Source of the DNA: a virus
Length of the DNA: 64,000 nucleotides
Strand: one strand, 5' to 3'
IMG/VR virus record: IMGVR_UViG_3300042503_000209
Span: 44,134-108,133 of that record
In this document: positions 4,887 to 59,066 of the stretch, one piece after another
Layout of the letters: the number at the start of each line of letters is the position of its first letter
How positions within the stretch are numbered: the stretch's first letter is position 1
Translations under genes and position numbers: made by a program
The notes under the pieces: generated by a model
The model's input: only the letters and a program-made list of their open reading frames with translations
The model's database searches: none
Told to the model about the DNA's origin: nothing

Positions 4887-4911
4887 GTGTTATGTGTATA
4901 TAAATTAATAA

Positions 4912-21757: not shown

Positions 21758-21814
21758 TACATATATAATATACAATAAAATCTTTAAAGTTTAAAACTAA
21801 ACCTTTAAAGTTTA
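21758..21814 (-). promoter_or_regulatory. Putative phage promoter/operator, copy 1
   Basis: Minus strand TAAACTTTAAAGGTTTA-GTTT-TAAACTTTAAAGATTTT-ATT-GTATATTATATATGTA. Same architecture and overall spacing as 40943-40999. Confidence 0.65.
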
Positions 21815-23845
21815 ATAACCATATCCATCATCATAACCAAATGGGTATGCACTTTGAGCCATAGGTGCTCTATTTAAAGCAGCATATTGAGCATTAATAG
21901 CTGCAGCATTACCTGCACCCCTATTAGATTGAAAAGCATTAGGAAATTGAGATCTTAAAAACCCATTAATAGTAGCAGCATCATGTCCTTCATTTTTTAA
22001 TTCAAGAGCAAATCTTCTCATAGCTGCTAAACTTTGTTCAGATGGTGCAGCACTTTGTCCAGTAATCATACTCATCCAGTTATTCTTATCTTTCCATTTA
22101 AGAGTTTCACCTTGTGGTCCTTCTTCTATAGAATAATACGGATTAGTTTCATTAAGCATGTTAAGCTTACTGTATCTATCACGCTCATTCATATTATACA
22201 TTTCTCTAGCTTTAAGATCCATTCTCATAGTATTACGATAAGCTTTATCTTCTTGCTGAGCATTAAATGCTAACTTGTCTCCAGCATCTGCTCTATAAGC
22301 CATCACTCTATTCATAATATCAGTTTGTAAAGGACTAAACTGATTAGCTACCCCAACATTCATGTTTTGATATCTACCCATAGTGTTAGCTGCTTGCTCA
22401 GCTCCTTGTGCATTTAATGCACTAGCTCTAGCAGAAAACTGCTGAGGATCCATTTGAGACATATAAGCCGCCATCATGTTACGATTAGATGCACCTTCAG
22501 CTAACTCTCTATTAGGATCGTAGAACGTAGGTTCTGGTATCATAGCATTAAGAGGTGCTGCATAAGGAGTGTAACGTTTAGGAGGAACCATAAACTGCAT
22601 ACCAAAGAACGGTCTTCTACCACCGCCTCCACCACCGCCACCGGTTGTAGTTATAGTAGTAGGATCTTCTTCATAGGTAATCTCATCCATCTTTTCCCAT
22701 GCTTTTATACACTTAGTAGGATCATTAGGATCTGGTGTATAACCTTCAGGACAAGTTTTAGTCTCAGGTGTTGTAGGTGTAGTTGTAGGTTTAGTACCAG
22801 GTGTATACTTTGGCATTCTACCACGTAAAAGCTCATCTAATCCTTTTTGCTTTTCCCCATCTGAAGCATCTTTAAAACCTTGTTTATTTAAAAAAGTACT
22901 ATAACAATTAGGTCTAGCATTCATATCAGCGACTGTGTACTTAAGATTAGCACATGGTCCACTACCACCTCTACTACTGCCACCAGTTGGAATATTATAT
23001 CCTGGAGTTAATGTTCCTGGTGTACCCCCAGATATAGTACCTGGTTTACCAGGAGTTATAATAATATCTTTAGTATCTTTACCAGATGTTGCTTTTCTCC
23101 ATACATTAGTATTACCTACACGCTTATATCCTTCTTTCTCATATTTACTTATTTCTTCCTTCTTAACTTTTTTAGGAGTAGTTCCACCACCTTGATAATA
23201 ACCTTCATCACCACCATAAAAACCTCCCATCTCAGCAAGTTGTTGTCCCATACCTTCTGGTAATACAGACATAGCTACATCAGGAATACCTTGAGGAAAT
23301 CCTTTCATAGACTCTTGTACTAATGCAAGTCCACCAAGTTTTTTTTCATAGTTATCAATCATTCTTTCAGCTGTACGTTTAGCCATCTTATCAGCATAAG
23401 GATCATCAAGTATAGCTCTGTACTTGTTAACATCATACTGCTTAGCTAAAGCTGCTGGGGTAAATTTCTGTTTAGTGTTTTCTGACTTACCAAACTTTGC
23501 AAGTACAGGTCCACCTATTCGTAACTTCTTTGTATCAGAATAAATAAAAGTACCTTCAGGAACATTTAAAGGTGTACCACCATTAGTATGTCTTTCACCA
23601 CCAATCTTCATATGTTCTTTACGACCATCATTATTAAAGTCTCCATATGCTGTTTCACCAAGCTCAGCTTCAATATTAGCTTCAGCTCTATCAACAGGTT
23701 GAAGAGTGTTAGATACTGACTCATATGGATTTTGGTTCATATCAGTGTATACATCTCGTTGCCCAAGATCTAGACCATAGTTTTTTTGACCACCATACGC
23801 CATAGATTCTGGAGCACTTTTAATTCTTACTTTATACTTTTTCAT
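21812..23845 (-). CDS. Putative cargo protein, 677 aa, with ExExGE...GxxHxxGG domain and xxxGG tags
   Basis: ANIEAELGE...GGERHTNGGTPLNVPEGTFIYSD, a motif I recall from crAss-like cargo proteins. Tags MAYGG, AEMGG and YQGGG; Pro/Thr/Gly-rich middle; helical C-terminus. Confidence 0.65.
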   Translation of the reverse strand: MKKYKVRIKSAPESMAYGGQKNYGLDLGQRDVYTDMNQNPYESVSNTLQPVDRAEANIEAELGETAYGDFNNDGRKEHMKIGGERHTNGGTPLNVPEGTFIYSDTKKLRIGGPVLAKFGKSENTKQKFTPAALAKQYDVNKYRAILDDPYADKMAKRTAERMIDNYEKKLGGLALVQESMKGFPQGIPDVAMSVLPEGMGQQLAEMGGFYGGDEGYYQGGGTTPKKVKKEEISKYEKEGYKRVGNTNVWRKATSGKDTKDIIITPGKPGTISGGTPGTLTPGYNIPTGGSSRGGSGPCANLKYTVADMNARPNCYSTFLNKQGFKDASDGEKQKGLDELLRGRMPKYTPGTKPTTTPTTPETKTCPEGYTPDPNDPTKCIKAWEKMDEITYEEDPTTITTTGGGGGGGGRRPFFGMQFMVPPKRYTPYAAPLNAMIPEPTFYDPNRELAEGASNRNMMAAYMSQMDPQQFSARASALNAQGAEQAANTMGRYQNMNVGVANQFSPLQTDIMNRVMAYRADAGDKLAFNAQQEDKAYRNTMRMDLKAREMYNMNERDRYSKLNMLNETNPYYSIEEGPQGETLKWKDKNNWMSMITGQSAAPSEQSLAAMRRFALELKNEGHDAATINGFLRSQFPNAFQSNRGAGNAAAINAQYAALNRAPMAQSAYPFGYDDGYGY

Positions 23846-23866
23846 ATTCTTATAGATATTACAAAT

Positions 23867-25627
23867 TTATAGAAATTCTACTTCACCACCTGAAGCTAAT
23901 ATACTTTTTATTTCATCCTCTGTTAGTTCATATATACCTCCAGATTCATATTGTGATATTGTACCGCCATCAGCATACAACTTCATACCACTTAATTTAT
24001 TGTATGCTTGCTTACCTTCCCATCTAGCAAATTGTTTTATTAACTTATCACGTTCTTCAGGAGTAAGATCTGCTAACACTTTATCTGTCCCCATAGCTTT
24101 TACAATATCTGGGGTAGACGCATTAGTTTTATCTGGACTACCACTAACCCATTTGTTTCTAGCTTGAGATATTGTAAGGTTAGAATAAGCCGGACCAAAT
24201 AAAAGATCTTGAGCTGCTCTAATACCTGTTTGAAAATCTGGAAATTTACTTACAAAACCACCACTATCTTTAGCACCTTGTACACCACCATACTTAGAAG
24301 TAAAATCACCATGATGTATATTCAAAGGATTATTATGACTTAAAGCAATTTCACCATCCACATTACCACCAGATGCTCTATTAAAACTTACATGAACATG
24401 ATCTGTATGTGGACTTTTGCCATTATATGGTCTCCATGAATTAGAAACAGATGGATTCCAAATCTGTTTATTCCAAATAATATATTTAATATTTTTATCT
24501 TGAGCTTCTTTAATAAGCTTTTGAGCTATTTCGTTTCCTTGATCTAAACCTGTTATACCAATATCTAAAGCATCTCCAGTATTATGATCACTTACTGATT
24601 TCTTATGGTTTGCATCACCCCATATCCCCCAATTTTGAACTCCTTGAAACTGAGAAGAAACTTCTTTCCATGTTTGTTCTGCAACCGGATTAGCACCACT
24701 AGATTTAACTGGAGCTGGAGAAGCATTTTCAGAAGTAGCGTAAGCTTCACCTGTAGCCATTGGACTCTGTAAAGGCATAGAAAAAGGAATTTGGTCAACC
24801 GGTAACATTAACTCATCAGGTATAATGCCTCCACCATACTGTGCCATTCTTGGTAAGAATTGACCAGTATACATGCCTTTATTTACAACATACTCATCAG
24901 GTCTAAACTCTCCAAATCTGCTACCACTAACTACATAGTCTCCACGGTTACCTGACATCTCACTAGGTACTTCAGGAAACAAAGAATCTGTAGATGTTTG
25001 GCGTCTTAACCTTTTATCAAATTCTTGTTTTCTTTTATAACTATTTACAAGTTCAGTACCAAAGTTTCCCCATGATGTTAATCTATTAATATCTTGAAAA
25101 GCTTTTTCTACTGGTTGACCTATATTTTTACTGTACCAACTAACTGGATTTGTGGATGTATTAGATTGAGTATTAGCTGCTGCAGCTTGTGGTGCTTGAT
25201 AAAACGGTGAAGCAGGATCTGTATCAAACTCCTCATCATCCCATTCAGAATGCCAAAATCTTTTAGGAGTTGTAGATGTTGTATTTGCAGCTGGAGCAGC
25301 AGTAGTATTAGTAGGTTGTACAGTAGGAGTAACTATAGAAGAACTACCACTAGGTTGTACAGGTGCTTGACCAAACGGTTTAAAAGTTAAACTAGGAAAC
25401 TTAGGACCAGCGGCTTTAAGAGCATCTATCTTATTACCATTTTGCAAACCGAGTTTTTGTCTACCAGAATTTAAAAATAATGAAGACTGACTCATAAGTT
25501 GAGCATATCTAGGATCATTAGGAGATATTAATTCACCATTATAACTTAAAGTAGTAGGGACATTACTTTTCTGTTGTCCAGCAAGTTGAGCTTTAGGTAA
25601 ACCTTTTCCTGTAATACGTATTTTCAT
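23867..25627 (-). CDS. Putative cargo protein, 586 aa, with an M15-like Zn peptidase and an NNPxNI lysozyme-like domain (virion peptidoglycan hydrolase)
   Basis: SDHNTGDALD...YIIW...WRPYNGKSPHTDHVHVSF (H-x6-D...HxH, ~24380-24700). HNNPLNI...KFPDFQTGIRAA (~23990-24345). Tags AQLAG, AQYGG, YADGG, YESGG. Confidence 0.72.
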   Translation of the reverse strand: MKIRITGKGLPKAQLAGQQKSNVPTTLSYNGELISPNDPRYAQLMSQSSLFLNSGRQKLGLQNGNKIDALKAAGPKFPSLTFKPFGQAPVQPSGSSSIVTPTVQPTNTTAAPAANTTSTTPKRFWHSEWDDEEFDTDPASPFYQAPQAAAANTQSNTSTNPVSWYSKNIGQPVEKAFQDINRLTSWGNFGTELVNSYKRKQEFDKRLRRQTSTDSLFPEVPSEMSGNRGDYVVSGSRFGEFRPDEYVVNKGMYTGQFLPRMAQYGGGIIPDELMLPVDQIPFSMPLQSPMATGEAYATSENASPAPVKSSGANPVAEQTWKEVSSQFQGVQNWGIWGDANHKKSVSDHNTGDALDIGITGLDQGNEIAQKLIKEAQDKNIKYIIWNKQIWNPSVSNSWRPYNGKSPHTDHVHVSFNRASGGNVDGEIALSHNNPLNIHHGDFTSKYGGVQGAKDSGGFVSKFPDFQTGIRAAQDLLFGPAYSNLTISQARNKWVSGSPDKTNASTPDIVKAMGTDKVLADLTPEERDKLIKQFARWEGKQAYNKLSGMKLYADGGTISQYESGGIYELTEDEIKSILASGGEVEFL

Positions 25628-27018
25628 TAGTCAATAATTTCAAAGTTATAACCACCTTGTTTTAACATTTGTAGTTCTTCTGGAGTGACATCTAATATAT
25701 CACCTTCTACTGGACCACCCATTTGCTTAGCAAAGTTCCTAGCAAAGTTAGCTTTTTTCCTCATAGCAGGACTATATCTTCCTTCTGGTGCGTTAAGTAT
25801 TGCTGATGCAGCTTCTTGTACTCCCATACCCATACGAGTAGCCTGTGCTTTAAATGTGCCAGCTTTAGCAGGATCTAATTGTATACCACCGTATGCCATA
25901 TTAGATAATATCTGTTGTTGTACAAATTCAGGTAGAGCTCTAAAACCTGCATTGTTAGTACCACCTTTCTCATAAAAAGCATTACCACTAAATGTAGTAC
26001 CACCTTCTTTCCATGTAGCTCTAGCAAATGCTCTAAAGAAAGGATTATTAGCTAAGTTCTTTTTATGACGAGCATAGAAAGCTTTCTTTCTTTCTGGATC
26101 TTTAGGATGCTGACCTAACTTAGAATCACCAAAATATTTAACAACTCCACCAGGTCCTGTCACTTTATGTGTCTTACCCTTACGATCATTACTTCTAGTT
26201 ACAGTGTATCCACCTCTTGCCATCATTTCTTTTTCATCTTCTTGCTCATACTCTTCATCTTCCATTTCTTCACCTTGAGCTTCAGGATTATACATCATAT
26301 AATCTGAAATACTATTTACACTATCATCAATCACAGCAAGCTTAGAAGCAATCCATGGATCTAAGTTTTGTTCTGGAGAAACAAACTGACGTAGTTTATT
26401 CATCTTATCAGCAACAGCAGACATTTGACCTAGTGCCATACCACCGTTTGGTTCACCACCTTCAGCAAACACTCCTGTCATATAACCACCATATCTCATA
26501 GCAGCTTGCTGCATGTCTGGTTGTTGCATACCAGGTTGTTGTGAACCAGCTCCTTGTTGTTGTACAGCTTGAACCATTTGTTCAAAAGCTCTTTGCTGAT
26601 CTTCTGGAGACATCTGCTGTAATTGCTGTAAAATCTTTTCAGGTTCTACTTGGTTCATTTGAGCAAACTGCTGAATAACCATCATAATCTGATCTTGTTG
26701 TCCACCCTGCTGCATATATTGGTTTCCACCATACATCATTTCTGGAGCATATCCACCATAGGCATAACCGTAATTATCCATTTGATCTAGATTACCAGCT
26801 GCTGCAAAACGTGCACGAGCTATTTCAGGTGGCATTTTTTCTCCACCACCTCCCATTACTTCCATACCGTATTCAGCTTTACGCCAAGTGCCGCCTTTAG
26901 ATTTATACCACTTAGCAGCCCATCCGTTAGCATAAGCACTAGGGTAGACATCAAATTTTTGTTTAGCCATAGACTTAGCTCTAGACCACAAGGCAGGATT
27001 ATTAGGTTTGTTTGCCAT
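25627..27018 (-). CDS. Putative internal virion polyprotein, 463 aa, made of short modules separated by xxxGG tags
   Basis: Modules PSAYANGW, Gln-rich helical, PWIASKLA, FGD...DPERKKAFYARH and KKANFARNF, separated by about 12 GG-type motifs. Confidence 0.65.
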   Translation of the reverse strand: MANKPNNPALWSRAKSMAKQKFDVYPSAYANGWAAKWYKSKGGTWRKAEYGMEVMGGGGEKMPPEIARARFAAAGNLDQMDNYGYAYGGYAPEMMYGGNQYMQQGGQQDQIMMVIQQFAQMNQVEPEKILQQLQQMSPEDQQRAFEQMVQAVQQQGAGSQQPGMQQPDMQQAAMRYGGYMTGVFAEGGEPNGGMALGQMSAVADKMNKLRQFVSPEQNLDPWIASKLAVIDDSVNSISDYMMYNPEAQGEEMEDEEYEQEDEKEMMARGGYTVTRSNDRKGKTHKVTGPGGVVKYFGDSKLGQHPKDPERKKAFYARHKKNLANNPFFRAFARATWKEGGTTFSGNAFYEKGGTNNAGFRALPEFVQQQILSNMAYGGIQLDPAKAGTFKAQATRMGMGVQEAASAILNAPEGRYSPAMRKKANFARNFAKQMGGPVEGDILDVTPEELQMLKQGGYNFEIID

Positions 27019-27027
27019 AATATATAA

Positions 27028-30000
27028 TTATTTTTTGTATTTAAATTTAGGATTATTAGGATTAAAAGGAGCATACTGATTAGTGTTCCATATACGTCCA
27101 TACCATGTATCATAATAATCACTATTAGGTACACCCGGTGCTGGGTTATTTATATTTCTATAATACCAATCTCTACCTTTATTCATTAAAACTCTTCTCT
27201 TATTTTCAGGAAGTTTACCAATAGTATTAGCATACTCTTTATCAAAAGAATAAGCTGGATTTTTTCTACCAGACCATTTGCCATCAGCATCTAATTTAGA
27301 TGGATCATATTGTCTGTAATATTCTTGTAAAGCATATGCTCTAGGATCTTTAGTTATTTTATTATTAGTTTTATCCCAACCAGCATTAAATATAAAATCC
27401 ATAGCTTCACCAGCTTCCATAGCACTTGCACCTGGCATTATCTTTTTTACTTCTGGATAAACCTTTTCCATTAACATTTTCATGTAACTAGGATCACTAT
27501 AATATGGTAAAGGAGAACCGCCAGGACCACCTCTAAGTTCCTCATACTTTAATATATTTCCAGCAATGTTTCTTACACTATCAGCTGAAGAAACTTGACC
27601 AGCAAACTGCATTTTTTTATGATTGTATGGAATACGTTCACTACTTGTTTTAGTCCTTTTAAATTTATCTTTTTCTGCAGAACTCATTTCAGATGATGTC
27701 TTAGGTGTCTGAGAGTTTACTCTTTTAGAAGGACGACATGCTGGATAGCCGGCTCTCTTTTCTCCTTCTTGTCTACCGCACGCTTTACCAGTCTTTACAT
27801 CTACCCACTTCTCTGCAAACCATCTATCTAAACCACCATGTTGTCCACCACTTTTCATCTTAACAGTACCACCACACTTATGACAAGTCATTGGATCATA
27901 ACCACCATCAGCAGCTTTCCATGACCATCCACAATTAGAACAAGAAACATTCTTGCTTAAAAGTCCACCATTCTTAACTTGAGGTATAGCATCAGAAGCA
28001 TAAGATGTTTTATTCTTTACTACATTATTATGAAGATCTGCAAGCTTTTGAGGATCGTTTCCAATTATCTTTAAAATATCATCTAAACTATTCAGACTAT
28101 TTTCTTTGCTCTTAAAAAGTTCATCACGAAAATTTTTAAAACTTCCCTTATAGTTATTATGATCATTAATGATCTTTTTCATATCCTCTGCTGTATACTT
28201 CTTTTTTGGATCTAGATTATACTGATATCTAAACTCATTAAGACGAGCATTTATTTCAGTTGGAGTAGAAAGATAATCATATTCATTTCTGGTACTAACA
28301 TATCTATCAGTTTTAAAATTTTTGTTTTTAGGAATTACTTGTTTAGAAATAAAACTACTAGGAGTACTGTATAAATTAGCATCCCAAAACCATCTAGGTT
28401 GATCATAAAAAGTATTATCCTCATAATCCATTTTATGAGTAAGTTCATGAATTTGAGTAGGGGCACTAAAACTTGTTGGATAATCAGTATTAAAGTTTAA
28501 TGAAGAATCTTTAGGGGTATAAAAAGCCTGAGTATTATATAGATTTTCATTTGTCTCTATATCTTTATTAGTGTATGTTTTATATTTTCCTGATAAATTA
28601 TCTAAAACAGATAATCTGCTATTAGCCCATTCAGTAAACTTAGGATCCTTAGCTCTTTCAGTTAACCAATACTGCATAAAATTACGCATATCTTTGTAAC
28701 CTTCTTTTAAAGAACCATCTTCAACTGTTATTCTAGTGTCATGATTATGAGCATACTTTTTCTTATTAACGTTTTTATTAAGAGCTGCCATAGTTGCCAA
28801 GTCAGATCTAGATAGACCACCACCTGACCACCCACCTTTTTGCATCATTGGATATTCATCTACATAAGATGCACCACCAAAGTTATAATCCTTACCAGGA
28901 TACATTACTTGTTTCTTACCGTTGTTACCTATTCCTAATACAGGATATGGTACACCTTGCATTGTAATATCTGATCCAGGTATACGAGTAACTTTACCAG
29001 GGTGAGCCCATTGACCACGAGGATCTAATATAGGTCCACCTTGTTTTTTATAATTTTGCATTCCTGCATACACTCCAAATTGACCTACTTCAGCTGGGGG
29101 AGCTGAAGGAAAAAATGGAACATTAGGAGCTTGTTGAATAGCTTGTATAGCATCTGTACCACGACCTGCATAGGGTACTCCCTGTATAACTTTACTAACT
29201 GCATCTAATCCAATTTTATGACGGGCTTTCAAACCAACTTTAGATGCATTACTCATCATCTTACCAAATTTACCTACCTTTCCTAACAAAGGAAGTGCAC
29301 CAAATATTTCAAGTTCTGTTTGAGGAGACATTCCAGTTTCTTTGTATGATTTGTAAACATCATCCCAAGAACTTAGTCCTGTTGGATCAATTATTTCAAA
29401 TATATTTTCTAAAGTAGAATCAGTTTGACCACCTCGTTGCTTCTTAGCACTACCCTTTTGTTTTTCAAATTCAGTAATACGAGGTTGTCCAGTAAACGGT
29501 TGAATGTTATTTAACAACTCATAATACTCTGCATAAGTAGGATTAGATTTATTCTTATTAATATATTCTAAACTTTTAACAAAGTTAGGATTTGTAAAGA
29601 TCTCAGGATACTTAGCTTTAAGTTCATCAAACGCAGTCTTTTGTCCTTCTTTAGCTAAGCCAATATGTGCAACGTCCCAGTCTTCAAGATGATACATTCC
29701 TGTTTTATCAGCAGCACTCCAAAGAACATCTTTATATAACTTTTTATTTACATTAGCATCAATAGGTTTACCATCTACATATAGAACGTAATCTTTTGCT
29801 GCATCAAAATTATGAAGAGATACTGGAGTTTGAGAGTTACCTTTTTTCTGAATCTCAAGTTGTGATTGTATATCACGTCCACCAGTCTTATCATAAAGAC
29901 CAGTGTTTTGATAGCCAACACTAACCTTTTTACCAGGATATAATGATTGAAGTTTCTTAGTAGCTTCTTGTTCAAACTCTGCAAACTTAGCCAATGGTCT

Positions 30001-33000
30001 ACTAGTTTGTTGACCAGGTAGTAAATAAGCAAAGTTACCACCACCTGTATTTAAATTATCATATGCTCTTAAATCAGCAGCAGTAAATTTTTGATCTTTT
30101 GTACGAAGTCCACGAGAATAAGAACCATTATCTAAACTAACTACAGTTACATATGGATTCTTTCCTTTAATACGTTTAAACTCTTCTTCAATATTTTTTA
30201 AAGATCCACTTACTAAACGAGTCTGTCCATCAGGAGTCTTAAAAATAAAACGTCCACCTGTTGCTACACCAAAAGCTTCATCAGCTTTATCTCCTTTAGG
30301 TAGCACTAAATTAAGCTTTCCTTGTACTTGTTTACCTTGGTCATCAAGTACTGTAACAGCTGGTGAAAAAGCGTTCTTACTAACCTTAGATCCAGCAGCA
30401 ACTTTTTTAATACTTCCTGATGGTTCTCTAATAAAATCTACTACTCTATTAGAAAATACACGACTTACTTGTACATCTTTATTTTCAAAGTCTTTACGTT
30501 GACCAACTTGTATTTTACCATCTGGACTATAAGCTAAATATGTAGCGTTAGCTGGATCATCTTTAGCACTAGCAAAATATGTTTTAGCATTTTCAAAAGG
30601 ATGGAATGCTGTAATAGAAGCAGCTTCTGAATCTATAGGGGTAAAGTCTCCTCTGTTACGTACACCAAAACGTAATGCATCAATATCCATACTTTCTGGT
30701 ATATGGTATTGACGACCACCAGCATCAGGAATAGTATCTCCTGTAACATACATAGGAGCAAAATCATACTTAGGAACTATGATTCTACTCTTAGGATCGT
30801 TAGCCATGTTCTTAATAGCCTGTTGACGGTCTAACCAGTTTTCATACTTTTGAGCCATGTCTGGAGAAAACAAACCTATTGCTTTTTTAGTAACGTCTCT
30901 TGTTATCTCATTAGCTCCTTGTGGAGACATACCCGATGGTCCAAAACTCATGTTGCTAAAATCAAGACCACTTTTATTTACAGCTTCTGAATAAGAATCA
31001 TAAAGATCTGAAAAGAAGTTTGATGTATTATCAATAAATTCTTCATACCAAGGTTTTTCTACTTCAGTTGTAACCTTCTCAGTTTTTACAGCTGGTTTAT
31101 TAGCTGGTATATATGGAAGTAAGTTTTTTTGTTGTGGTCTATAGAAAGAATAAAAATTTGGGTTAGTAAACATATTGTTTTGACCCATTAAATTTTTTAC
31201 ACCAAATCCTGATTCTTGATTCATAGGACTTACTTCTTCTTCAGTATTGTATACCTCAGAAGTAAGCGGACCCAGTATTGGTTTTCTAGTAGCTGGAACA
31301 AAAGGATTGTATTGAGGAAAAGTTAGTGTTGATTTTGGAGTAGCACCAGTTACAGGACGAGTAACTTCAGGTGTAACTTCAGGTGTTATTTGAGTAGTAG
31401 TATTTCGTTTACCAAATCCAAAAGGTAAAGGAATAACCATTTGAGGCTTTAAAGAAAACTTATCATACTTAACTTTAGGTTGTAAAGATACATTTATCTT
31501 TGGAGGAGTTATTCTCATATCTCCATATTCAGGACTAAACGTATAATAATTACCAGGATTAACAGGTCGTTGAGCTGGTGGTGGAGCAGCATTTTGAGCA
31601 GCAGCTTGTCTTGCAGCTCTAGCTTGGTTCTCCATCTCCATTATTCTTTCTACAGATATTGGAGCCTGTGTTGGTTGATAACTTTGTTCTAATAAATCAT
31701 CATTCTCACGAAGTTTATTAAGAAGCTCTGTATTCTTAGCAGCAGAATAATCATAACCTTCTATACCATACTTATCAGCAAGTTCTTTTCTAAATGCTTT
31801 CTTACCAGAATATCCTCTAGTAGCTAAATAATCTACAATACTTGGTCCTTTATATTCTAAACCTTCTTGAGCAAACACTCTAAACATATTGTTTTCTCCA
31901 CCATATCTTTGTTCTTTTTGACCAGCCATATTCATACCAGCATTGTATGCAGCATTAGTTAGAATAAAAGGTATACGTGGATTTTCATAATTTCTATTAC
32001 GTCCAAAAAAAGCATTAGTTCTTCTTTTAGCATAGTCACCAACAACACTAGGAATTCTAGATAAAGGATTACCTTTTACCATGTAAATACTAGGTTGTTC
32101 ATAATATGAAGCCCATGCATTATTTCCAATGTTTTCATCTAATATTTTAGTCATAGGAAAGTTTAAACCTGTCTTTCTATTAACTTCAATAATAGGTTTA
32201 TCTAATGTAGGTTTATAATTATTTAAAAACTCTTCAAAAGACTTTTTAGCGTTATAATCTGTCTGAGCTGCATACGGTAAATCACTTATAATTTGAGAAC
32301 TTATACCATCTCTTTCTAACTGAGCAGCTTTTTGTAAAGATTGAGGATCACCTAGTTTCTTTAAATAGTCAACACGATTTTTTAAATTCTCAGCGTAAGT
32401 AGCTGCACCAGGTATTGTACTTTCTACGTTTTTTGGTAGGGCGTTACTAACCCTTTTACCCATATTACCTGACCAGTTTAATGTTTGAGTTGTACCAGGA
32501 TTAACTACAGTAAATCCTTTTGGAGATCTAGCAGCTTGTGTCCAAAATAATGGAGCTGAGTTTTTACTCATATTTCCATCAAAAGTAAATGCTCCTTTAG
32601 GTAGTGAAGCCATTTCTTGAGACATCATTCTAGACACTTCATCCGCAGGTATATTAAAATATGAGTGACCATATATATCACCTGGTCTTGTACCACTAAG
32701 TTCAAGAGCTCCAGCATTAGCTGCATTTCTTATTCTACCCAAGCCACTAGTCATTCCTGCTGTACCCTTATATGCTTTAGTAGCTCCTTGTAATCCTTTA
32801 GAAACAAAGTTAGCTCCTTGAACACCTTCTGCTACAAAAGGAATAGCTCCTAAACCATGCATTGCTGTATTTAAAAAATCCATTCCACTTAAACTAAATG
32901 GATCAGTTACTCCTTTATATGCTATATTGCCAACACCTTTACCAAACTCTTTTGCTTCATTCATATAGAAAAAAGGATTAACCAAATTTGCAGCTAAATC

Positions 33001-33381
33001 TAAAGAGTTCTTTTTTCCTCTCTCTAAATGATCAGGTATATCTCTTCCTTGAACTTTATAAGCTAAAGCTGTCATAGGATTAGTAGCAATAGACCAAGCT
33101 TTAGAAGCCATGGATTGTGCAGGTTCTGCTTGTCTAATATATCCTTGTCTATCTCTAGCAGCTTGATCTGCAGCACGTTTAGCTAAAACTTGTTTAGCTA
33201 TAGCATCCTTTTGTATTTTTGCTCTAACAACAGCAGGATTAGGTATGTTATCATAGACAGGTCTTTCGTTAACTGGAACTTTAAACATTACTGTACCAGC
33301 CCTCTGCATTTTTGGAAGCCCAGGAAGAATCTTGTGATCTACATCACCTGCATTAATAATATGTTGTAATAACTTATTCAT
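27028..33381 (-). CDS. Multi-module putative cargo polyprotein, 2117 aa: DUF3597-like, M15 peptidase, zincin, Zn ribbon, basic Cys module, GH108-like
   Basis: SIVDYLATRG...KYGIEGY...NTELLNKLR (DUF3597-like). RDIQSQ...SLHNFDAAKD...DVAHIGL (M15). HELTH...EINAR (28435-28449). CSNC...CHKC. GLDRWFAEKWVD...YPACRP. ILKYE...DFIFNAG...RDWYY...WYGR (GH108-like, weak). Confidence 0.75.
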   Translation of the reverse strand: MNKLLQHIINAGDVDHKILPGLPKMQRAGTVMFKVPVNERPVYDNIPNPAVVRAKIQKDAIAKQVLAKRAADQAARDRQGYIRQAEPAQSMASKAWSIATNPMTALAYKVQGRDIPDHLERGKKNSLDLAANLVNPFFYMNEAKEFGKGVGNIAYKGVTDPFSLSGMDFLNTAMHGLGAIPFVAEGVQGANFVSKGLQGATKAYKGTAGMTSGLGRIRNAANAGALELSGTRPGDIYGHSYFNIPADEVSRMMSQEMASLPKGAFTFDGNMSKNSAPLFWTQAARSPKGFTVVNPGTTQTLNWSGNMGKRVSNALPKNVESTIPGAATYAENLKNRVDYLKKLGDPQSLQKAAQLERDGISSQIISDLPYAAQTDYNAKKSFEEFLNNYKPTLDKPIIEVNRKTGLNFPMTKILDENIGNNAWASYYEQPSIYMVKGNPLSRIPSVVGDYAKRRTNAFFGRNRNYENPRIPFILTNAAYNAGMNMAGQKEQRYGGENNMFRVFAQEGLEYKGPSIVDYLATRGYSGKKAFRKELADKYGIEGYDYSAAKNTELLNKLRENDDLLEQSYQPTQAPISVERIMEMENQARAARQAAAQNAAPPPAQRPVNPGNYYTFSPEYGDMRITPPKINVSLQPKVKYDKFSLKPQMVIPLPFGFGKRNTTTQITPEVTPEVTRPVTGATPKSTLTFPQYNPFVPATRKPILGPLTSEVYNTEEEVSPMNQESGFGVKNLMGQNNMFTNPNFYSFYRPQQKNLLPYIPANKPAVKTEKVTTEVEKPWYEEFIDNTSNFFSDLYDSYSEAVNKSGLDFSNMSFGPSGMSPQGANEITRDVTKKAIGLFSPDMAQKYENWLDRQQAIKNMANDPKSRIIVPKYDFAPMYVTGDTIPDAGGRQYHIPESMDIDALRFGVRNRGDFTPIDSEAASITAFHPFENAKTYFASAKDDPANATYLAYSPDGKIQVGQRKDFENKDVQVSRVFSNRVVDFIREPSGSIKKVAAGSKVSKNAFSPAVTVLDDQGKQVQGKLNLVLPKGDKADEAFGVATGGRFIFKTPDGQTRLVSGSLKNIEEEFKRIKGKNPYVTVVSLDNGSYSRGLRTKDQKFTAADLRAYDNLNTGGGNFAYLLPGQQTSRPLAKFAEFEQEATKKLQSLYPGKKVSVGYQNTGLYDKTGGRDIQSQLEIQKKGNSQTPVSLHNFDAAKDYVLYVDGKPIDANVNKKLYKDVLWSAADKTGMYHLEDWDVAHIGLAKEGQKTAFDELKAKYPEIFTNPNFVKSLEYINKNKSNPTYAEYYELLNNIQPFTGQPRITEFEKQKGSAKKQRGGQTDSTLENIFEIIDPTGLSSWDDVYKSYKETGMSPQTELEIFGALPLLGKVGKFGKMMSNASKVGLKARHKIGLDAVSKVIQGVPYAGRGTDAIQAIQQAPNVPFFPSAPPAEVGQFGVYAGMQNYKKQGGPILDPRGQWAHPGKVTRIPGSDITMQGVPYPVLGIGNNGKKQVMYPGKDYNFGGASYVDEYPMMQKGGWSGGGLSRSDLATMAALNKNVNKKKYAHNHDTRITVEDGSLKEGYKDMRNFMQYWLTERAKDPKFTEWANSRLSVLDNLSGKYKTYTNKDIETNENLYNTQAFYTPKDSSLNFNTDYPTSFSAPTQIHELTHKMDYEDNTFYDQPRWFWDANLYSTPSSFISKQVIPKNKNFKTDRYVSTRNEYDYLSTPTEINARLNEFRYQYNLDPKKKYTAEDMKKIINDHNNYKGSFKNFRDELFKSKENSLNSLDDILKIIGNDPQKLADLHNNVVKNKTSYASDAIPQVKNGGLLSKNVSCSNCGWSWKAADGGYDPMTCHKCGGTVKMKSGGQHGGLDRWFAEKWVDVKTGKACGRQEGEKRAGYPACRPSKRVNSQTPKTSSEMSSAEKDKFKRTKTSSERIPYNHKKMQFAGQVSSADSVRNIAGNILKYEELRGGPGGSPLPYYSDPSYMKMLMEKVYPEVKKIMPGASAMEAGEAMDFIFNAGWDKTNNKITKDPRAYALQEYYRQYDPSKLDADGKWSGRKNPAYSFDKEYANTIGKLPENKRRVLMNKGRDWYYRNINNPAPGVPNSDYYDTWYGRIWNTNQYAPFNPNNPKFKYKK

Positions 33382-33384
33382 GTC

Positions 33385-36300
33385 TTACCTAAAAGATTGT
33401 TGTATTTTCTGATTAGATATCTTAAAGATCATTTTTAAATCATTGCTAGTTAGTTTTCTAAGCAACACTTTATTTACATTATGTCTAAACTTCTTACGTT
33501 CTAATACAGGTTTCTGATAGTTTACGTAAGCTGGGTTAATTTGAAACTGATAACCATTAGCTCTTGTATTAAACATAGGTACATTATTACTAGCAAACTC
33601 TCCACGATTTTTAGTTATATCCCAGAACTGATTAAATCTATATTTATTCTCTTCTTTAGAATAATTAATCTTTATAGAAGATGTGCCTACTTGAGGATAA
33701 GATAGCATATCTACTGGATTAACCTTACTCTTTAAAGTCATCTCTAATAAACCAGATACTTGTTCAGAGTTATATATAATAGCTTGATCAAAGTTCTCAT
33801 CTAAGATATGAAATTTATCAGCACATCCATTATGATATTTATAAGTTTCAAGCAAGTATTCTATATTCCTTACAGTTGTAACTGTCTGACCTGTAGACGA
33901 TATAAACTCAACCTCAAACGGATAATCTTTATTATAGAAGTTAGCAAACTTATCACAACGCTGATTATGCTTCCACACCGTATTAGAATTCACACTTAAG
34001 AAATGAGCTCTACCAGGAAGTAAGAATGTAGGAATCCAATCATGGAAAGAAATCCACATCTTGCTTTTAGGATCATAACTTATAGTCCAAGAAGCTTCTT
34101 CAAATGCTTCACTCTTAAATGTGTAATAAGTCTTGGTTCCGTTTATAGTTCTATAAAATCCATTAGAGTCATATGCTAAGTCAGAAAACTTTGGTTTGTA
34201 ATCTTTCTTAGTAATATATAAAATCTCGTGTGTATTGTCATAGATCATCTGTACGCCAACACCAGATACTGGATTATCATATAATGGATAATCTGGAAAA
34301 GCTTTTAGTAACTCACTAGGTAAATACTTAGCAAACCACCATTTCATTCCATTACGAGATATTTCATTTAACCCACCGGCATACTGAAATACTTTACCCT
34401 GGTTCTGACTTACCCAGAATACACCATGTGTAGTACCTACAGAACAATATCTACCTTGGTTTGATCCATACTCATATGAGTCATCAGCATTTACTAAGTT
34501 CTGGAAAGGTTGACTAAACAATCCGCCATCACCAATAGTAATCTTAGTACCTGCATCTGTCTGTAACTGATCTACTCCCATAAACTGTATAGGACTTTGA
34601 TCAGCTAACATGAACAACGCACCGTTTTTATTAACAGACTTAATATTAGATATTCTAGAGCTAAAGTCTTTATAGTTATTAGCTAAGAATACTCTCCAGT
34701 TATCTTTGCTAATCTCATCCTGTTGAGGAAGAGAATAGATTGCACGGTTAGGTCTATATGTATAGCATGTAGAGTAAGTCTCAGGATCATAGTTCCTAGG
34801 AAGTACGTTACCCCATGAAATAAAATTACTGTATAGTTTAGATACACTTAAAGAGTAATCATACTTGTAATAGTTACCGCTTCTAATAATATCACTTCTA
34901 AACATCAAGCTTAGATCAGTAAATGAACTGCTATCATAGTGACGCTTAGATGTTTCGTCTTCCCAATCACGGTAAGCTAAGTTAATCTCAGACTCAACAA
35001 AAAACTCTCTTACACCAGAGTTAAACAAGTAAATATATCCTTGGTGGATATAAAAGAATCTACTTACACTTTTATCTAGGTGATGATGTTCTTTAGCTGA
35101 ACTCTGTAAAAGTTTATATTCTGCTTCAGCAGTATTCATCCAATATCTTGGATAAGGTACATTTATATAGTTTCTATAGTCATAAGCAGTTTCATCTGGG
35201 AAGTCAATCATCCAGTCATTAAAGAATGGCATAGTGTTCTTCTCAGTAAACTTATTGATGTATACATCACCTCCAAATAAAATATCAGAAGTAAACTTAA
35301 CTCCTGTTGCACCATTAGTCTTTCCAACACAGGTAGAAACTGGTACTTGTTTAATAGACTCTAACTGACCATACTGTGCTGGTAAAGGAATTTTAATAGC
35401 ACCATAGTGACATGATATATTTCTTTGAAATCCTTTTCTAGGTTCTACACCAGCATCACTAATAAGCACTCTACTATTATCAACATTCCTAGGGTTTGCA
35501 AAAGTCTTTCCAGATGGAAGTTTAATAACTACAAAGTTTCCTCTGTATAAGTTATTGATTCTAAATCCATTATTAAAACCTTGAACGTTTCCTCCTACAT
35601 ATAAACTATCATCAATTTTTCTTCTTCTGTTACCAGTTTGTGACTGAGTAAACTTATTAAAAAATCCATGAGAGTTATATTGTAAAGCATACTGACGTCT
35701 AGGAATTAAACCATAAACTAAAATTTGTATCTGAGCACTAGTAGTTTCAGTATGTATGTATTTTACTACAACTAGTTGAGCTGCATAACTAAATTGATTA
35801 ATACCATAAGCTATATTATCAACTAAACCTGATACTAATGATCCTGCACCAGGAGCAATTAGATTTGTTATACCTCCAAGAACCGATCCTAATACTGTTT
35901 TCTTTGGTTCAGGTTTTACAGGAGTAACATTAAGTTTAACAGGAAGTTTATCATTACCTGTAAATTCTACAGCACCTGGAGGTAATTCACTAGATATACT
36001 ATTAATAATTCTAACTATTTGTAAAGCTTTATTTATGAATTCTATATCTTTACCAATAAACTTATTTTTAGGATGTCTCCAAGGATGCTCAAAAGCTCCT
36101 TGAGATTTACCATAAACTTCACCATACAGTTTTACTTCCTGTACAGATAAAAATGGTTTAGTAAACGTTGTATCAGGACTATGAAAAGAAAATATATCTT
36201 TTCTATAATCTCTTAAAGGATCTTTCTTACGATTAGTAAATGAACCGTCATTAATGATCTCTTCATTAGAAGTTAAATAGTAGTCATCTGATAAGTCATT

Positions 36301-38427
36301 ATACGGATAGTTCTGGAACAATCCTTGAACACCTACTGTACCCTCTTGAATTGTATACTCACGCATATTGTTAAATACACCTGTAGCTACAATAGTTTTA
36401 TGACCTTCTCTTGTTCCTCTTAATATTTCATATCCAACCACAGAAGCAATTGGCTTACCATCTATACCTAATGGATGTGTAATGTTTTCAAACTGTACAC
36501 CTAAAACAACAATGTTTTGACCATCTGTATTAAAGTGATTAATAATAGGATCTACAGTGGCATCAGGAAACTTATGATGTCTAATAGGTTGACCACACAA
36601 AGCTCCCCATATTTGTGGTTTATTATCAGGATATAATTCTGTAGATTCCCAATAACCCATTTGCCCACTTGCAATAACTTTACCACCATCCGCTAATGTT
36701 CTTGTTGTTAAATTGTCTATTGTTGCTGTGTTTTCTACTTTCCAACGTTGTGGTGTTACACCATCTTCTATTTCAAATACATCTTCTCCTGCAACAGTAG
36801 CTCTATCAGATGCTACAGCAGGTCTACCTGGAATATGATATGAATCAGAACGCTCACCTGTATTGTATACCCATCTAATAAAAAATGCATATTGTTCATC
36901 TCTCATAAAAGAAGGATTGTTTCCTCCCTTTACGTAATATGTAGATGGATACTGTACAGCTACCCACTTCGATCTAATAGCGTTAGCTTGTTGTTGATAG
37001 TTAAATCTAAACTTAGTATATGTACCTACACGTATTAAATAATCAGTTACAGAATATAATGCATCTGATTTTTCAATTGGTTCTGTTCTAAGAACAACCA
37101 TTGTAAGAGGTACAGTAATTAATTCTGGACCTACACTGCTTATATAAATAACTCCTTGACTAGTAGAATAGTAACCAAGACTTTTAGCTACTGTCTGCTG
37201 GTTAATATTAGATATAACTATTAACTCAAACTCGTCAAAGTTTTTATCAATGTCTGTAATAGTCACTTCTAAAGAACCAGATAAGTTCTGATGACTAAAC
37301 AATGACTGCACTTCACTTAAACCAAAGTAGTCAGTCACTTTAACTTGATCTACTGTATACGCTAATGCCACTTGGTAAGAACCATTGGCTAACGTACCAG
37401 CACCTTTACCCTTTTGTAAAGACACGCAAGGATGTTTTACAATACTTGCTAATCTTATCTTTTCACAATCAAGTCTGTCTGAACAGATAGGAGTTGTACA
37501 TCCAATACCATTACTAGTTGGAGATATAACTGTAACATCGTTTAAACTATATGGAGTTGTGGTTGTACTTTGAGATATACATCCACAAGGTATAGAATTT
37601 CCATTATTATCTAATTTTCTAGATATAACAGTTAATGCATCAAGAACTCCTCCTGGAAACTGTTGTTCGTAAGCTTGTTGATCTGTAAGACATAACTCAT
37701 AAGCAGTACGACCAGCTGTAGGAATTGTAATATTAATTATGTGAGTATAACATGGTTCTGCAACACAGGATTGCGTAGTAACCTGCATATCAGAAGCTTT
37801 ATCAAAAGATAAAAACTCAAATACTTCTCCATCAACTAAATATTTAGTCTGAGAAACATAATTAATGTCTTTATATATAATGGTTGTCCTAGCCGTTTTA
37901 GCAGGACAAGTAGCTCCAATAAGTTTATACTTAAAAGGTTGTTGTGCTGTATTTACTGTACTATCTGTACATACATAAGGTATGTCATTAATATTCAGAA
38001 CTCTAGTAGGGTTTAGACCATCGTCCCAATAAAGTAATGTATCACAATCAAATCTTGAACGTGACACACCAGTGATTAAGTTTGTACGTTTAAAGTTTAA
38101 ACATGGATCATTTATAATCTTAGTATAAGAACAAGCTGACTCATCAAAAATTCCAATCTCAGAGTTAAGATCATCTGTAGTAAATACAGCCCATTGATCA
38201 TCCCCAAGATGTACAGTACCAATTAATGTATAAGGAAGTGTAGCACAATATAAATTAGCTGGTTCGTTTCCAATTACTCCCACTTGTCCATCATGTGAGT
38301 TATTAACTGCGTTACGTGCATGCGTATACAATCCCTCACCAACGAAAGTCTCGTTATAGTCTTTAACCATACCCTTATTAAAGGTATTAGTTGTAGCTCC
38401 CGGATTTTGTGATTCTTGTTCAGCCAT
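33385..38427 (-). CDS. Tail muzzle / stabilisation protein (P22 gp10-like, crAss-like), 1680 aa
   Basis: N-terminus NTFNKGMVKD...LYTHARN; beta-propeller-like composition; C-terminal WTISYD...WISFHDWIP. Sits between the ring and cargo genes. Confidence 0.78.
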   Translation of the reverse strand: MAEQESQNPGATTNTFNKGMVKDYNETFVGEGLYTHARNAVNNSHDGQVGVIGNEPANLYCATLPYTLIGTVHLGDDQWAVFTTDDLNSEIGIFDESACSYTKIINDPCLNFKRTNLITGVSRSRFDCDTLLYWDDGLNPTRVLNINDIPYVCTDSTVNTAQQPFKYKLIGATCPAKTARTTIIYKDINYVSQTKYLVDGEVFEFLSFDKASDMQVTTQSCVAEPCYTHIINITIPTAGRTAYELCLTDQQAYEQQFPGGVLDALTVISRKLDNNGNSIPCGCISQSTTTTPYSLNDVTVISPTSNGIGCTTPICSDRLDCEKIRLASIVKHPCVSLQKGKGAGTLANGSYQVALAYTVDQVKVTDYFGLSEVQSLFSHQNLSGSLEVTITDIDKNFDEFELIVISNINQQTVAKSLGYYSTSQGVIYISSVGPELITVPLTMVVLRTEPIEKSDALYSVTDYLIRVGTYTKFRFNYQQQANAIRSKWVAVQYPSTYYVKGGNNPSFMRDEQYAFFIRWVYNTGERSDSYHIPGRPAVASDRATVAGEDVFEIEDGVTPQRWKVENTATIDNLTTRTLADGGKVIASGQMGYWESTELYPDNKPQIWGALCGQPIRHHKFPDATVDPIINHFNTDGQNIVVLGVQFENITHPLGIDGKPIASVVGYEILRGTREGHKTIVATGVFNNMREYTIQEGTVGVQGLFQNYPYNDLSDDYYLTSNEEIINDGSFTNRKKDPLRDYRKDIFSFHSPDTTFTKPFLSVQEVKLYGEVYGKSQGAFEHPWRHPKNKFIGKDIEFINKALQIVRIINSISSELPPGAVEFTGNDKLPVKLNVTPVKPEPKKTVLGSVLGGITNLIAPGAGSLVSGLVDNIAYGINQFSYAAQLVVVKYIHTETTSAQIQILVYGLIPRRQYALQYNSHGFFNKFTQSQTGNRRRKIDDSLYVGGNVQGFNNGFRINNLYRGNFVVIKLPSGKTFANPRNVDNSRVLISDAGVEPRKGFQRNISCHYGAIKIPLPAQYGQLESIKQVPVSTCVGKTNGATGVKFTSDILFGGDVYINKFTEKNTMPFFNDWMIDFPDETAYDYRNYINVPYPRYWMNTAEAEYKLLQSSAKEHHHLDKSVSRFFYIHQGYIYLFNSGVREFFVESEINLAYRDWEDETSKRHYDSSSFTDLSLMFRSDIIRSGNYYKYDYSLSVSKLYSNFISWGNVLPRNYDPETYSTCYTYRPNRAIYSLPQQDEISKDNWRVFLANNYKDFSSRISNIKSVNKNGALFMLADQSPIQFMGVDQLQTDAGTKITIGDGGLFSQPFQNLVNADDSYEYGSNQGRYCSVGTTHGVFWVSQNQGKVFQYAGGLNEISRNGMKWWFAKYLPSELLKAFPDYPLYDNPVSGVGVQMIYDNTHEILYITKKDYKPKFSDLAYDSNGFYRTINGTKTYYTFKSEAFEEASWTISYDPKSKMWISFHDWIPTFLLPGRAHFLSVNSNTVWKHNQRCDKFANFYNKDYPFEVEFISSTGQTVTTVRNIEYLLETYKYHNGCADKFHILDENFDQAIIYNSEQVSGLLEMTLKSKVNPVDMLSYPQVGTSSIKINYSKEENKYRFNQFWDITKNRGEFASNNVPMFNTRANGYQFQINPAYVNYQKPVLERKKFRHNVNKVLLRKLTSNDLKMIFKISNQKIQQSFR

Positions 38428-38779
38428 GTTTTATTTCCAGCTTCTTCTTTTCTAAAAATTTATATACCACTGCGGTTAAATGTCCAGCTAACCATGCTTG
38501 AGCTTCTTCATCTGATATTCCTCTATCTTCTGTCACTCTAACTACAGCGTGAAACATCTCGTGAGCTATTGTGTTATGCGTTAGATATTTAACACCTAGT
38601 AATAAATAGTAAACATCTATATCATGCATAATCAAAGCTCCTTCTGCTTCATCACCAAAATCATCTTTTATTTTGCACTTCTTGTAAATCTTCTCTGCTT
38701 CAGCAGCAACACTGTCAACTATACTTATAATTATCTTACAACTATAAGTAGGTAAATTTATCGTGGTGCTTAGCTTCAT
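38420..38779 (-). CDS. Small zincin-like metalloprotease, 119 aa
   Basis: TIAHEMFHAV...DEEAQAW (HExxH plus distal Glu). Overlaps the start of the muzzle gene by 8 nt. Confidence 0.65.
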   Translation of the reverse strand: MKLSTTINLPTYSCKIIISIVDSVAAEAEKIYKKCKIKDDFGDEAEGALIMHDIDVYYLLLGVKYLTHNTIAHEMFHAVVRVTEDRGISDEEAQAWLAGHLTAVVYKFLEKKKLEIKHG

Positions 38780-38782
38780 ACA

Positions 38783-39676
38783 TTACAATCCCTCTGTTGA
38801 TTTAAACATATCGTAATACTTACTATACATAGCTTTACGATTTGTTTGCCATAACTTATACATTTCTGCAAAGTCAGGAGTGTTAACAATACTTAATGCA
38901 TTATTTCTTGCTGCTCTTAAACGCTGCTCTACTAGCTGAATTCTTTGAGAAACATCCTCCCCGTTCATGTATAAGTTTTCTAGAATACGCTGCTTCATAG
39001 CATATTCATAATACTCATTAATTACAGGATGATCTAATACCAATAAATTACCATCATCATCTTGTAATGCACCTTGATATGATATAAATAGTTTTCCTTC
39101 TTCTACATTACTATAAACAAAACCATTCTTAATATATCCGTTTTTACCACTATCGTTTAAAGCATCTATTCTTCCTGTAGAAGTAGAGATACTTATCTTT
39201 TCAAAGTTGTTGTAAGTCCTAGTTTCATACTTACGCTTTTCTACAACCTGTACATATATCTTCTCACCTGTCTTACACTCTACACTGTATGTTCTTTCAC
39301 AAAGACAAGTAGTGTCAACTTCTCCGCATTTATTACATACATTCTTACCATCTACAGTTTTGCAATGTCTAGGATCAAGTATAACATTCTCAGTATGACG
39401 ACCATGCATTACAGGATAAGTAGCTGTTACCTCTCCACACAAGTATGCATAGTTTAACACATAGAAATCATCAGGTAACTTAGCCTTATTCTTTTCTATG
39501 TCAATTATCTTTTCTTTAGTTCCATGAATTCTTAAACCTAAATCATAACTTACACGCTGAGCCACCTTAATAAGCTGACCAGCTTCAATCATGCCCTCAT
39601 TACTATACGTACTAAAATCCACCGAAACTTCATCAAGAAGTTGGTTAAAAGTTCTATATTGTAATTCAGTTTTCAT
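38783..39676 (-). CDS. Tail ring / tubular protein, 297 aa, with Cys-rich insertion
   Basis: IEKNKAKLPDDF...YIKNGFVYSNVEEGKLFISY...DDDGNLLVLD resembles crAss-like ring proteins. ATGA-coupled to the upstream gene. Confidence 0.65.
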   Translation of the reverse strand: MKTELQYRTFNQLLDEVSVDFSTYSNEGMIEAGQLIKVAQRVSYDLGLRIHGTKEKIIDIEKNKAKLPDDFYVLNYAYLCGEVTATYPVMHGRHTENVILDPRHCKTVDGKNVCNKCGEVDTTCLCERTYSVECKTGEKIYVQVVEKRKYETRTYNNFEKISISTSTGRIDALNDSGKNGYIKNGFVYSNVEEGKLFISYQGALQDDDGNLLVLDHPVINEYYEYAMKQRILENLYMNGEDVSQRIQLVEQRLRAARNNALSIVNTPDFAEMYKLWQTNRKAMYSKYYDMFKSTEGL

Positions 39677-59057: not shown

Positions 59058-59066
59058 AACCTACTA

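Follow-up and report, generated by a model that had tools for sequence, protein, structure and literature searches.

Four adjacent phage genes and their Gly-Gly seams

The DNA examined here, referred to as the window, comprises 64,000 nucleotides of IMG/VR record IMGVR_UViG_3300042503_000209 and forms the right-hand 64 kb of a 108-kb contig from an uncultured phage, whose completeness was put at 83% by CheckV. All large genes of the window are on the minus strand, and four consecutive ones (21812-33381) encode proteins of 2117, 463, 586, and 677 amino acids (aa), 3,843 aa together, in which a short peptide ending in Gly-Gly (GG) recurs. The original prediction had described such peptides as tags at the borders of unrelated modules; it had the four genes, their coordinates, strand, and lengths right, and every pentapeptide it quoted was present. 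Here, we show that this conserved peptide, hereafter called the seam, marks module junctions in the cargo genes of this lineage and of other crassviruses, and that modules were gained, lost, and moved in evolution exactly at the seams.

The first gene of the block (27028..33381, minus strand, as are all features below) encodes the 2117-aa modular cargo protein, which opens with a conserved 29-aa leader ending in MQRAG. Its seams include QRYGG495, KQRGG1318, KKQGG1449, MQKGG1517, and VKNGG1806, and it bears HELTH at residue 1645, a Zn-ribbon-like CxxC...CxxC at 1813-1837, and the C-terminal half of DUF5872 at 1841-1913. The 463-aa protein (25627..27018) resembles beads on a string, starting with the N-terminal half of DUF5872 (residues 5-50) and carrying 10 strict seams. 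Three of its seams (YAYGG, MMYGG, and MQQGG; residues 85-106, 26701..26766) follow each other in a tandem cluster, while MAYGG (residues 374-378, 25885..25899) closes a 25-aa module. In the 586-aa cargo protein (23867..25627), the leader MKIRITGKGLPKAQLAG is followed by seams AQYGG266, YADGG555, and YESGG564, and residues ~340-420 hold a cell-wall peptidase-like motif, HTDHVHVS; this protein also has a tape-measure-like PHROG match. The 677-aa cargo protein (21812..23845) begins with the leader MKKYKVRIKSAPESMAYGG, and its residues ~60-185 show weak likeness to the portal-binding domain of the crAss001 cargo protein C1. An eight-Gly run at residues 402-409 (window 22619-22642) lies between the two halves of the 677-aa protein.

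Enrichment of the seam and module exchange in relatives

Under a strict definition, [M/F/Y/W]-x-x-G-G, the four proteins contained 20 matches in 3,843 aa, half of them in the 463-aa protein, compared with 21 in the other 30,246 aa of the genome. The "about 30" motifs of the original prediction are reached under a looser definition that allows AG and K/Q/A-led peptides, and not under the strict one. Enrichment over a shuffled background, also predicted, was confirmed: when each of the four proteins was shuffled with its composition kept (n = 2,000), the mean was 4.3 and the maximum 12 strict matches. For M..GG alone, 10 occurrences in the four proteins stood against 1 in the rest of the 108-kb genome (shuffle mean 1.2, z 7.9). 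The residue three places before GG was M/F/Y/W in 17 of 51 cases (33%), where composition predicts 13.6% (p = 2.6e-4), and no such bias was seen in the rest of the proteome (17/154). Consistent with the claim that the flanking genes lack the pattern, strict matches numbered 1 in the muzzle-like protein, 0 in the 1060-aa protein, and 2 in the 4545-aa virion RNA polymerase (vRNAP) protein.

A profile of 1,131 distinct GG contexts placed M (34%), Y (20%), F (8%), and W (6%) at P5, with 1.19 bits at that position, followed by A/Q/K/E at P4, Y/N/E/D/Q at P3, Y/E at P1', and T/P/V/I at P2'; the control profile from other open reading frames (ORFs) of the same contigs was flat. The seam consensus is [M/Y/F/W]-[A/Q/K/E]-x-G-G-[Y/E]. 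At the DNA level, the seam's first Gly codon was GGT in 18 of 20 cases (64% GGT overall), giving a recurrent GGTGG pentamer across the four cargo genes (21812-33381). A repeated DNA element was considered as the source of the seam and rejected, as the DNA shares only the Gly codons.

Database relatives of the 463-aa protein number >4,400 and vary widely in length and coverage. When divided after each GG, they prove to consist of the same beads, entire beads being inserted (135-308 aa), lost, or shifted in position. For example, a 25-aa module ending in NMAxGG, found at residues 354-378 here, occupies residues 60-85 in several relatives. Among 130 internal BLAST breakpoints of the 463-aa protein, 64% fell within -1 to +2 of a seam's last Gly, where 13% was expected. 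In 74 related viral contigs, the share of breakpoints coinciding with seams was 69% in the 463-aa protein, where chance predicts 13%, 36% in the 2117-aa protein (chance 3%), and 19% in the 677-aa protein (chance 7%), whereas the control proteins (muzzle-like and 1060-aa) had 0% of their breakpoints at GG. The GG pairs themselves were invariant over relatives at 55-95% identity. Seam-rich ORFs made up 73 of 591, every one on the cargo strand, and their lengths, from 272 to 2,845 aa, indicate that gene fusion and fission are frequent. Homologous loci thus bear out the original prediction that modules come and go at the tags, and support its idea of a "domain + tag" cassette.

Only the 463-aa protein of the four cargo proteins was folded with AlphaFold, from 32 aligned relatives, and the overall predicted local distance difference test (pLDDT) score of 44.6 was poor. 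The score exceeded 50 only at residues 111-156, 271-336, 388-428, and 441-463, each within one bead; every seam lay in a stretch below 50, and about 9 of 15 seams came 1-4 residues after a predicted helix. This model, weak as it is, fits seams that lie between folded units.

The placement of tags at module boundaries was supported by the breakpoints at GG, but some of the tags listed by the original prediction lie inside folded domains. MKIGG and HTNGG of the 677-aa protein pair weakly with a GG-rich stretch on the N-terminal side of the portal-binding domain of C1 and, judging from this alignment, are probably structural rather than seams. KSKGG and MKSGG/QHGG sit inside or at the edge of the two DUF5872 halves, and the LKQGG that ends the 463-aa protein lacks conservation, with QQGY in its place in relatives. 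The C-terminal ...EELxxL..GG was considered as a double-glycine leader and rejected for the same lack of GG conservation in relatives; 2A-like translational skip, sortase (LPxTG), and rhombosortase (GlyGly-CTERM) signals were dropped since their motifs do not fit.

DUF5872, a small Pfam family of giant viruses and phages, is split in the window (N-terminal half at 26869-27006, C-terminal half at 27643-27861), and its halves occur in swapped order over two genes, the C-terminal half near the end of the 2117-aa protein and the N-terminal half opening the 463-aa protein. The N-terminal half alone is also found in T4-like Synechococcus phages. Pfam searches of excised modules added little besides DUF5872, DUF3597-like, and Extensin-like_C matches, and searches of PDB sequences with the 677- and 2117-aa proteins found nothing. 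The 463- and 586-aa proteins have similar acidic C termini, ...TPEELxxL..G.xFEI and ...LTEDEIKSIL..GGEVEFL, and the genes that follow them open with a basic MK..(V/I)RI(K/T) strand. Judged from these sequences, acidic C termini and basic N termini could allow successive cargo proteins to dock head-to-tail.

Kinship with crassvirus cargo and a candidate peptidase

The order of genes around the block is CrAss_Ring_2, CrAss_Ring_1, a 119-aa gene, a 1680-aa muzzle-like gene, the four genes under study (2117, 463, 586, 677), and a gene for a 1060-aa protein, beyond which lie a 4545-aa protein with DFDID and then a 1718-aa protein. Pfam matches to the tail ring proteins CrAss_Ring_1 (38783-39676) and CrAss_Ring_2 (39673-40347) place the phage among the crAss-like viruses. 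The 1680-aa protein (33385..38427), which is without seams, matches the crAss001 muzzle protein gp44 weakly, though collinearly over its length. The 4545-aa vRNAP fusion (4912..18549) has DFDID at residue 3315 (window 8593-8607) and a zincin-like HEAFH at residue 1766 (about 13240-13254) and is likewise without the seam pattern; DFDID is the catalytic motif of the phi14:2 virion RNA polymerase (bioRxiv 10.1101/2020.03.07.982082). This protein appears to join parts that are encoded by separate genes in crAss001 and phi14:2. Elsewhere in the window, three very large Gly-rich proteins (1531, 1852, and 1444 aa; 48923-63401), one with a C-terminal Peptidase_S74 chaperone domain, are probably tail fibers. 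No terminase, portal, or capsid genes were recognized on the incomplete contig, and a megablast search of the locus against named phages returned no match.

In crAss001, which has the cargo proteins C1 and C2, the gene for C1 (gp45) directly follows the muzzle gene (PMC10172136). As the order of rings, muzzle-like gene, four genes, and downstream vRNAP is kept here, the four genes hold the place of crAss001 C1/C2, and their products are probably cargo packed and injected by a distant crAss-like phage. The Pfam families crAss_CARG1 (PF25725) and crAss_CARGO2 gave no match in the window's own genome. C1 of crAss001 (Bayfield et al. 2023, PMC10172136; Pfam crAss_CARG1) shares with this block its position directly after the muzzle gene and its layout of basic leader and GG-bounded modules, and its portal-binding domain has a weak likeness in the 677-aa protein. 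The C1 of Dulem virus 41, a CARG1-bearing protein, contains a segment with 76% identity to residues 377-434 of the 463-aa protein; the identity of these residues to cr108_1, cr128_1, and cr10_1 is 42-58%. A basic helical module of the 463-aa protein (residues 379-435) recurs in C1 of Dulem virus 41, cr108_1, and cr128_1, all of which have the same seam layout as the four proteins; in them the module has GG on both sides. It precedes the portal-binding domain in cr128_1, Dulem 41, and crAss001 and follows it in cr108_1. For the 677-aa protein, the match to the Dulem 41 C1 (BLASTP) had an E value of 0.028, and hhalign paired its residues 90-182 with gp45 466-544 at E 0.0048 with a probability of only 7%.

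crAss001 gp45 itself carries FDTGG21, SAYGG210, FAEGGG265, KAFGG333, NAFGG428, and FAYGG563, and both of its resolved segments, 214-245 (tail barrel) and 425-552 (portal), begin at or just after an aromatic-GG seam. The seam rule is statistically weak in gp45 and appears not to have been described for C1 in the literature searched. Unlike in C1, the content here is divided among four genes that total 3,843 aa, with extra modules (cell-wall peptidase-like, HExxH, Zn ribbon, and the DUF5872 halves). We tentatively regard the four genes as an expanded, multigene form of C1.

Three of the four genes encode a conserved N-terminal leader of 17-29 aa that ends in a seam. The 677 family opens with MKxYKVRIKKSPESMAYGG and the 586 family with MKIRITGKxLPKAQ-x-AG, while the leader of the 2117 family ends in ...LPGLQKMQKGG, where homology among relatives ceases. 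Leader-plus-seam arrangements were also found in C1 of crAss001, Dulem 41, and cr128_1. In the gut crassvirus cr10_1, the basic helical module forms a stand-alone 75-aa protein with a 20-aa leader ending in YKNGG, and its upstream neighbor is an HExxH "peptidase"; both genes (4643-6174) lie between the portal and major capsid genes.

The original prediction had suggested a search for a CE-clan or head-maturation protease and had drawn an analogy to adenovirus, African swine fever virus (ASFV), and poxvirus. The analogy failed on the points examined. Among five relatives that were 96-100% complete, Peptidase_C48 (Ulp1-like) was found in none, although only the C48 profile was used and a divergent CE-clan member could escape it; Peptidase_S78 (HK97-type) and CLP_protease were likewise absent (S77 was not searched), as was Peptidase_C39. 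The hydrophobic residue is one place further from GG than in the adenain consensus.

In contrast, four HExxH motifs occur in the cargo block, in the proteins of 2117, 4545, 1718, and 119 aa. The last (38420..38779), encoded between the tail-ring gene R1 and the muzzle-like gene, has an invariant HExxH. Its AlphaFold model (pLDDT 94) consists of strand-strand-helix-strand-strand-helix(HExxH)-helix, with HExxH in the penultimate helix (H73, E74, and H77 invariant) and a near-invariant E92 in the last helix, and a profile search returned 1,273 matching clusters of about 115-125 aa, HExxH being kept in 150 of the 150 members listed. HExxH in the penultimate helix with Glu in the last helix is the layout of zincin-like MPTases (Iyer et al., PMC5512222), and on the strength of this model the 119-aa protein is a candidate minimal zincin-like peptidase. 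Its profile reaches the cr10_1 "peptidase" encoded immediately ahead of the leader-YKNGG miniprotein (E 2.9e-5) and, more weakly, the HEAFH region of crAss001 gp47 (E 0.02). Neither a tblastn search of named phages with the 119-aa protein nor a comparison of its profile with PDB sequences found anything.

Possible roles of the seams

We tentatively favor the view that the seams are processing sites in polyvalent cargo, which we hold to be quite possible rather than probable. Each cargo protein would be a chain of small, independently folding modules with a seam peptide at each joint, and the four genes would encode ejected "polyvalent" cargo in which at least some seams serve for processing. 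The chains, short N-terminal leaders included, would be processed into individual modules while the particle is assembled or once the cargo has been ejected, either by a zincin-like metallopeptidase of the same block (the 119-aa HExxH protein or HExxH modules within the cargo) or by a host enzyme. Zincin-like peptidases have been predicted to process polyvalent phage proteins (PMC5512222). Two frames are nearer than the original prediction's one of adenovirus, ASFV, and poxvirus: the polyvalent phage proteins with zincin-like peptidases, and the T5 and lambda tape measures, which are cut.

The tape measure pb2 of T5 is cut into pb2* and a 92-residue pb2C, and lambda gpH is cut in a Gly-rich region, its site and enzyme being unknown (PMC12617516). 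Counting 92 residues on the T5 sequence places the cut at ...FVPR|AEGGMMYPG..., beside the sole GG of the last 700 residues and between a hydrophobic stretch and the peptidase domain; the 42 residues modeled from T1085 onward would reach 1126, one position short of it (bioRxiv 10.1101/2022.09.20.507954). T5 pb2 and lambda gpH are ejected, as is probable for the proteins studied here, and they are extended in the tail lumen and have a Gly-rich cut region, with both pieces staying in the particle. The T5 cut sets apart a cell-wall peptidase module, its ...PR|AEGG... context shares AEGG with a seam here (FAEGG), and the 586-aa protein has a tape-measure PHROG match. They differ in that T5 and lambda are siphoviruses with a single cut, before GG, whereas the phage here is podovirus-like. 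The protease for T5 is unknown, and a role of the host has been reported. By analogy, cutting at the seams may fall elsewhere than after the second Gly, as the T5 cut lies two to three residues before GG.

Other systems share parts of the pattern. GG/AG-X sites (adenain, pS273R, and I7) and C39 double-glycine leaders have Gly-Gly after a hydrophobic residue at the maturation sites of virion proteins or exported peptides. The adenain consensus is (M/L/I)-x-G-G|x, with the hydrophobic residue at P4; here it is at P5, with A/Q/K/E at P4, and viruses and hosts are unrelated. The C39 leader, LSxxELxxIxGG, is not matched by the basic leaders seen here (MK..VRIK..., LPKAQ). Among packaged and ejected proteins that are processed by head proteases, those internal to T4 (capsid-targeting sequence, with gp21) and those of the phiKZ/SPN3US inner body (with gp175 and gp245) combine a short leader at the N terminus with brief cleavage motifs repeated where domains meet, but the T4/phiKZ motifs end in Glu (L/I-x-E or S/A/G-x-E) and need a prohead serine protease, while the motif here ends in GG. 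Polyvalent proteins (Iyer, Burroughs, Anand, de Souza, Aravind 2017, PMC5512222) agree in that many unrelated domains share one virion-delivered polypeptide, relatives are mosaic, and HExxH peptidase domains, predicted to process the chains, are found within these proteins or their gene block. Neither a junction motif nor a cleavage motif is defined in that study, whereas the locus here has a specific seam peptide and a free-standing 119-aa HExxH gene.

Several observations weigh against processing at the seams. Cutting would yield very small peptides, since 28% of the distances from one GG to the next are ≤12 aa. The 119-aa protein, whose fold was matched to no known peptidase, had no Foldseek match at E ≤0.001, a best VIA-align Z of 5.3 (YbeY-like and SPRTN chains at Z 3.6-4.5), only Pfam matches below the cut-off, and belongs to no Pfam family, and the five near-complete relatives had no C48, C39, S78, or ClpP protease. 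The vRNAP fusion, predicted by others to be a cut polyprotein, is without seams. In crAss001 gp45 alone, the strict motif was observed 3 times with 1.4 expected (p about 0.17), which is not significant; gp45 was modeled by its authors as one chain from tail to capsid (PMC10172136), and we found no link to cleavage of crassvirus cargo in the literature searched. The crAss001 model, in gp45 numbering checked against published mass spectrometry peptides, starts A425-F-G-G-W and includes G427-G428 joined to the domain, so that a cut after GG is excluded at seam 428 in portal-bound copies. crAss001 gp47 is intact, running as a ~270-kDa band (PMC6235969), and peptides were seen to either side of its four motif matches. 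Weakly in favor of processing, a cut in the T5 register at seam 428 would make A425, the first ordered residue, the new N terminus; this is a single coincidence to be taken as a lead only. We also reanalyzed the crAss001 gel from the published matrix-assisted laser desorption/ionization (MALDI) peak lists (PMC6235969, supplement file 14; without bands 11-13). Bands 1-9 were assigned to gp44, gp50+gp47, gp49, portal, gp26/gp22, gp22/gp25, gp25, and gp23. No semitryptic seam peptide was seen in these lists, in which gp45 itself was at decoy level in every band; portal, likewise at 12 copies in each virion, hardly rose over decoy, and gp46 escaped detection, so that the lists speak neither for nor against a full-length gp45.

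The same evidence can be read without a protease. A seam may be an uncut hinge: the helix that ends a module would be capped by the hydrophobic residue and brought to a stop by Gly-Gly, which would also make the joint flexible. Modules would then fold and unfold singly as the chain threads the portal and tail, and recombinants would survive at seams, which would account for module swapping. This is the main rival, somewhat less likely than processing. It accounts for the seams that closely follow predicted helices in low-scoring stretches of the 463-aa model, for the intact gp47 despite its motif matches, and for the failure to find a classical maturation protease, and it agrees with the crAss001 model, where AFGG is joined to the portal-bound domain and the authors propose threading with partial unfolding (PMC10172136). 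A plain linker, however, would not need the conserved residues on both sides of GG, and helix capping hardly accounts for seams that stand in tandem, 5-13 aa from one another and without an intervening domain; the leader-plus-seam arrangement persists in so short a protein as the stand-alone one of 75 aa, and the ejected tail proteins of T5 and lambda are cut in just such Gly-rich contexts. Alternatively, the seam could be a short binding or "sticker" motif that loads cargo into the procapsid or tail, or condenses disordered cargo through many weak aromatic/Met-Gly contacts, as in low-complexity Tyr-Gly regions. The multivalent and tandem arrangement of seams in Q/M/Y/G-rich disordered stretches, the unstructured zone without ordered density formed by crAss001 cargo (PMC10172136), and the seam-ending leaders at N termini, where targeting signals are expected, all speak for it. 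We nonetheless consider it improbable: folded segments beside the seams, and not the seams, make the ordered contacts between crAss001 C1 and the portal and tail barrel, no partner is known, and homology breaks exactly after GG would be left unexplained.

That the pattern is a functionless by-product of Gly-rich, low-complexity composition or of a repeated DNA element has hardly any probability left. The four proteins are somewhat Gly-rich (8-11%) and the seams favor GGT as first Gly codon, but the tail-fiber proteins are equally Gly-rich and lack the P5 bias, and no DNA is shared beyond the Gly codons. Composition-preserving shuffles never reached the observed counts, and by-products would hardly keep GG pairs invariant among relatives or coincide with breakpoints that are absent from GG in the controls. 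The shuffles and the comparative data already largely refute this explanation.

A more specific form of the processing view, in which the seams are cutting signals of the zincin-like peptidases of polyvalent proteins and the ~119-aa HExxH family trims crassvirus cargo into modules, is unlikely on present evidence. If it were true, crassvirus C1 would be a genuine polyprotein, the tail-bound and portal-bound pieces of gp45 would be separate fragments and not one threaded chain, and the same rule would lie behind the unexplained tape measure cuts of T5 and lambda.

Crassviruses are the most abundant human gut phages and are common in the sea, and about 5 MDa of protein is stored and injected. 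The gene class studied here is known, from crassvirus cargo and from polyvalent proteins; the seam rule, the leader-plus-seam arrangement, and the family of free-standing HExxH proteins encoded next to the muzzle gene appear not to have been described in the literature searched. With seams as module borders, large "hypothetical" cargo genes become divisible into units that can be folded, expressed, and tested singly. The conserved 119-aa HExxH protein, as modeled, offers a concrete enzyme candidate, and the seams provide a sharp test of cargo cutting that bears on the threaded-gp45 model and on tape measure cut sites. The seam rule also explains how these phages acquire new injected enzymes.

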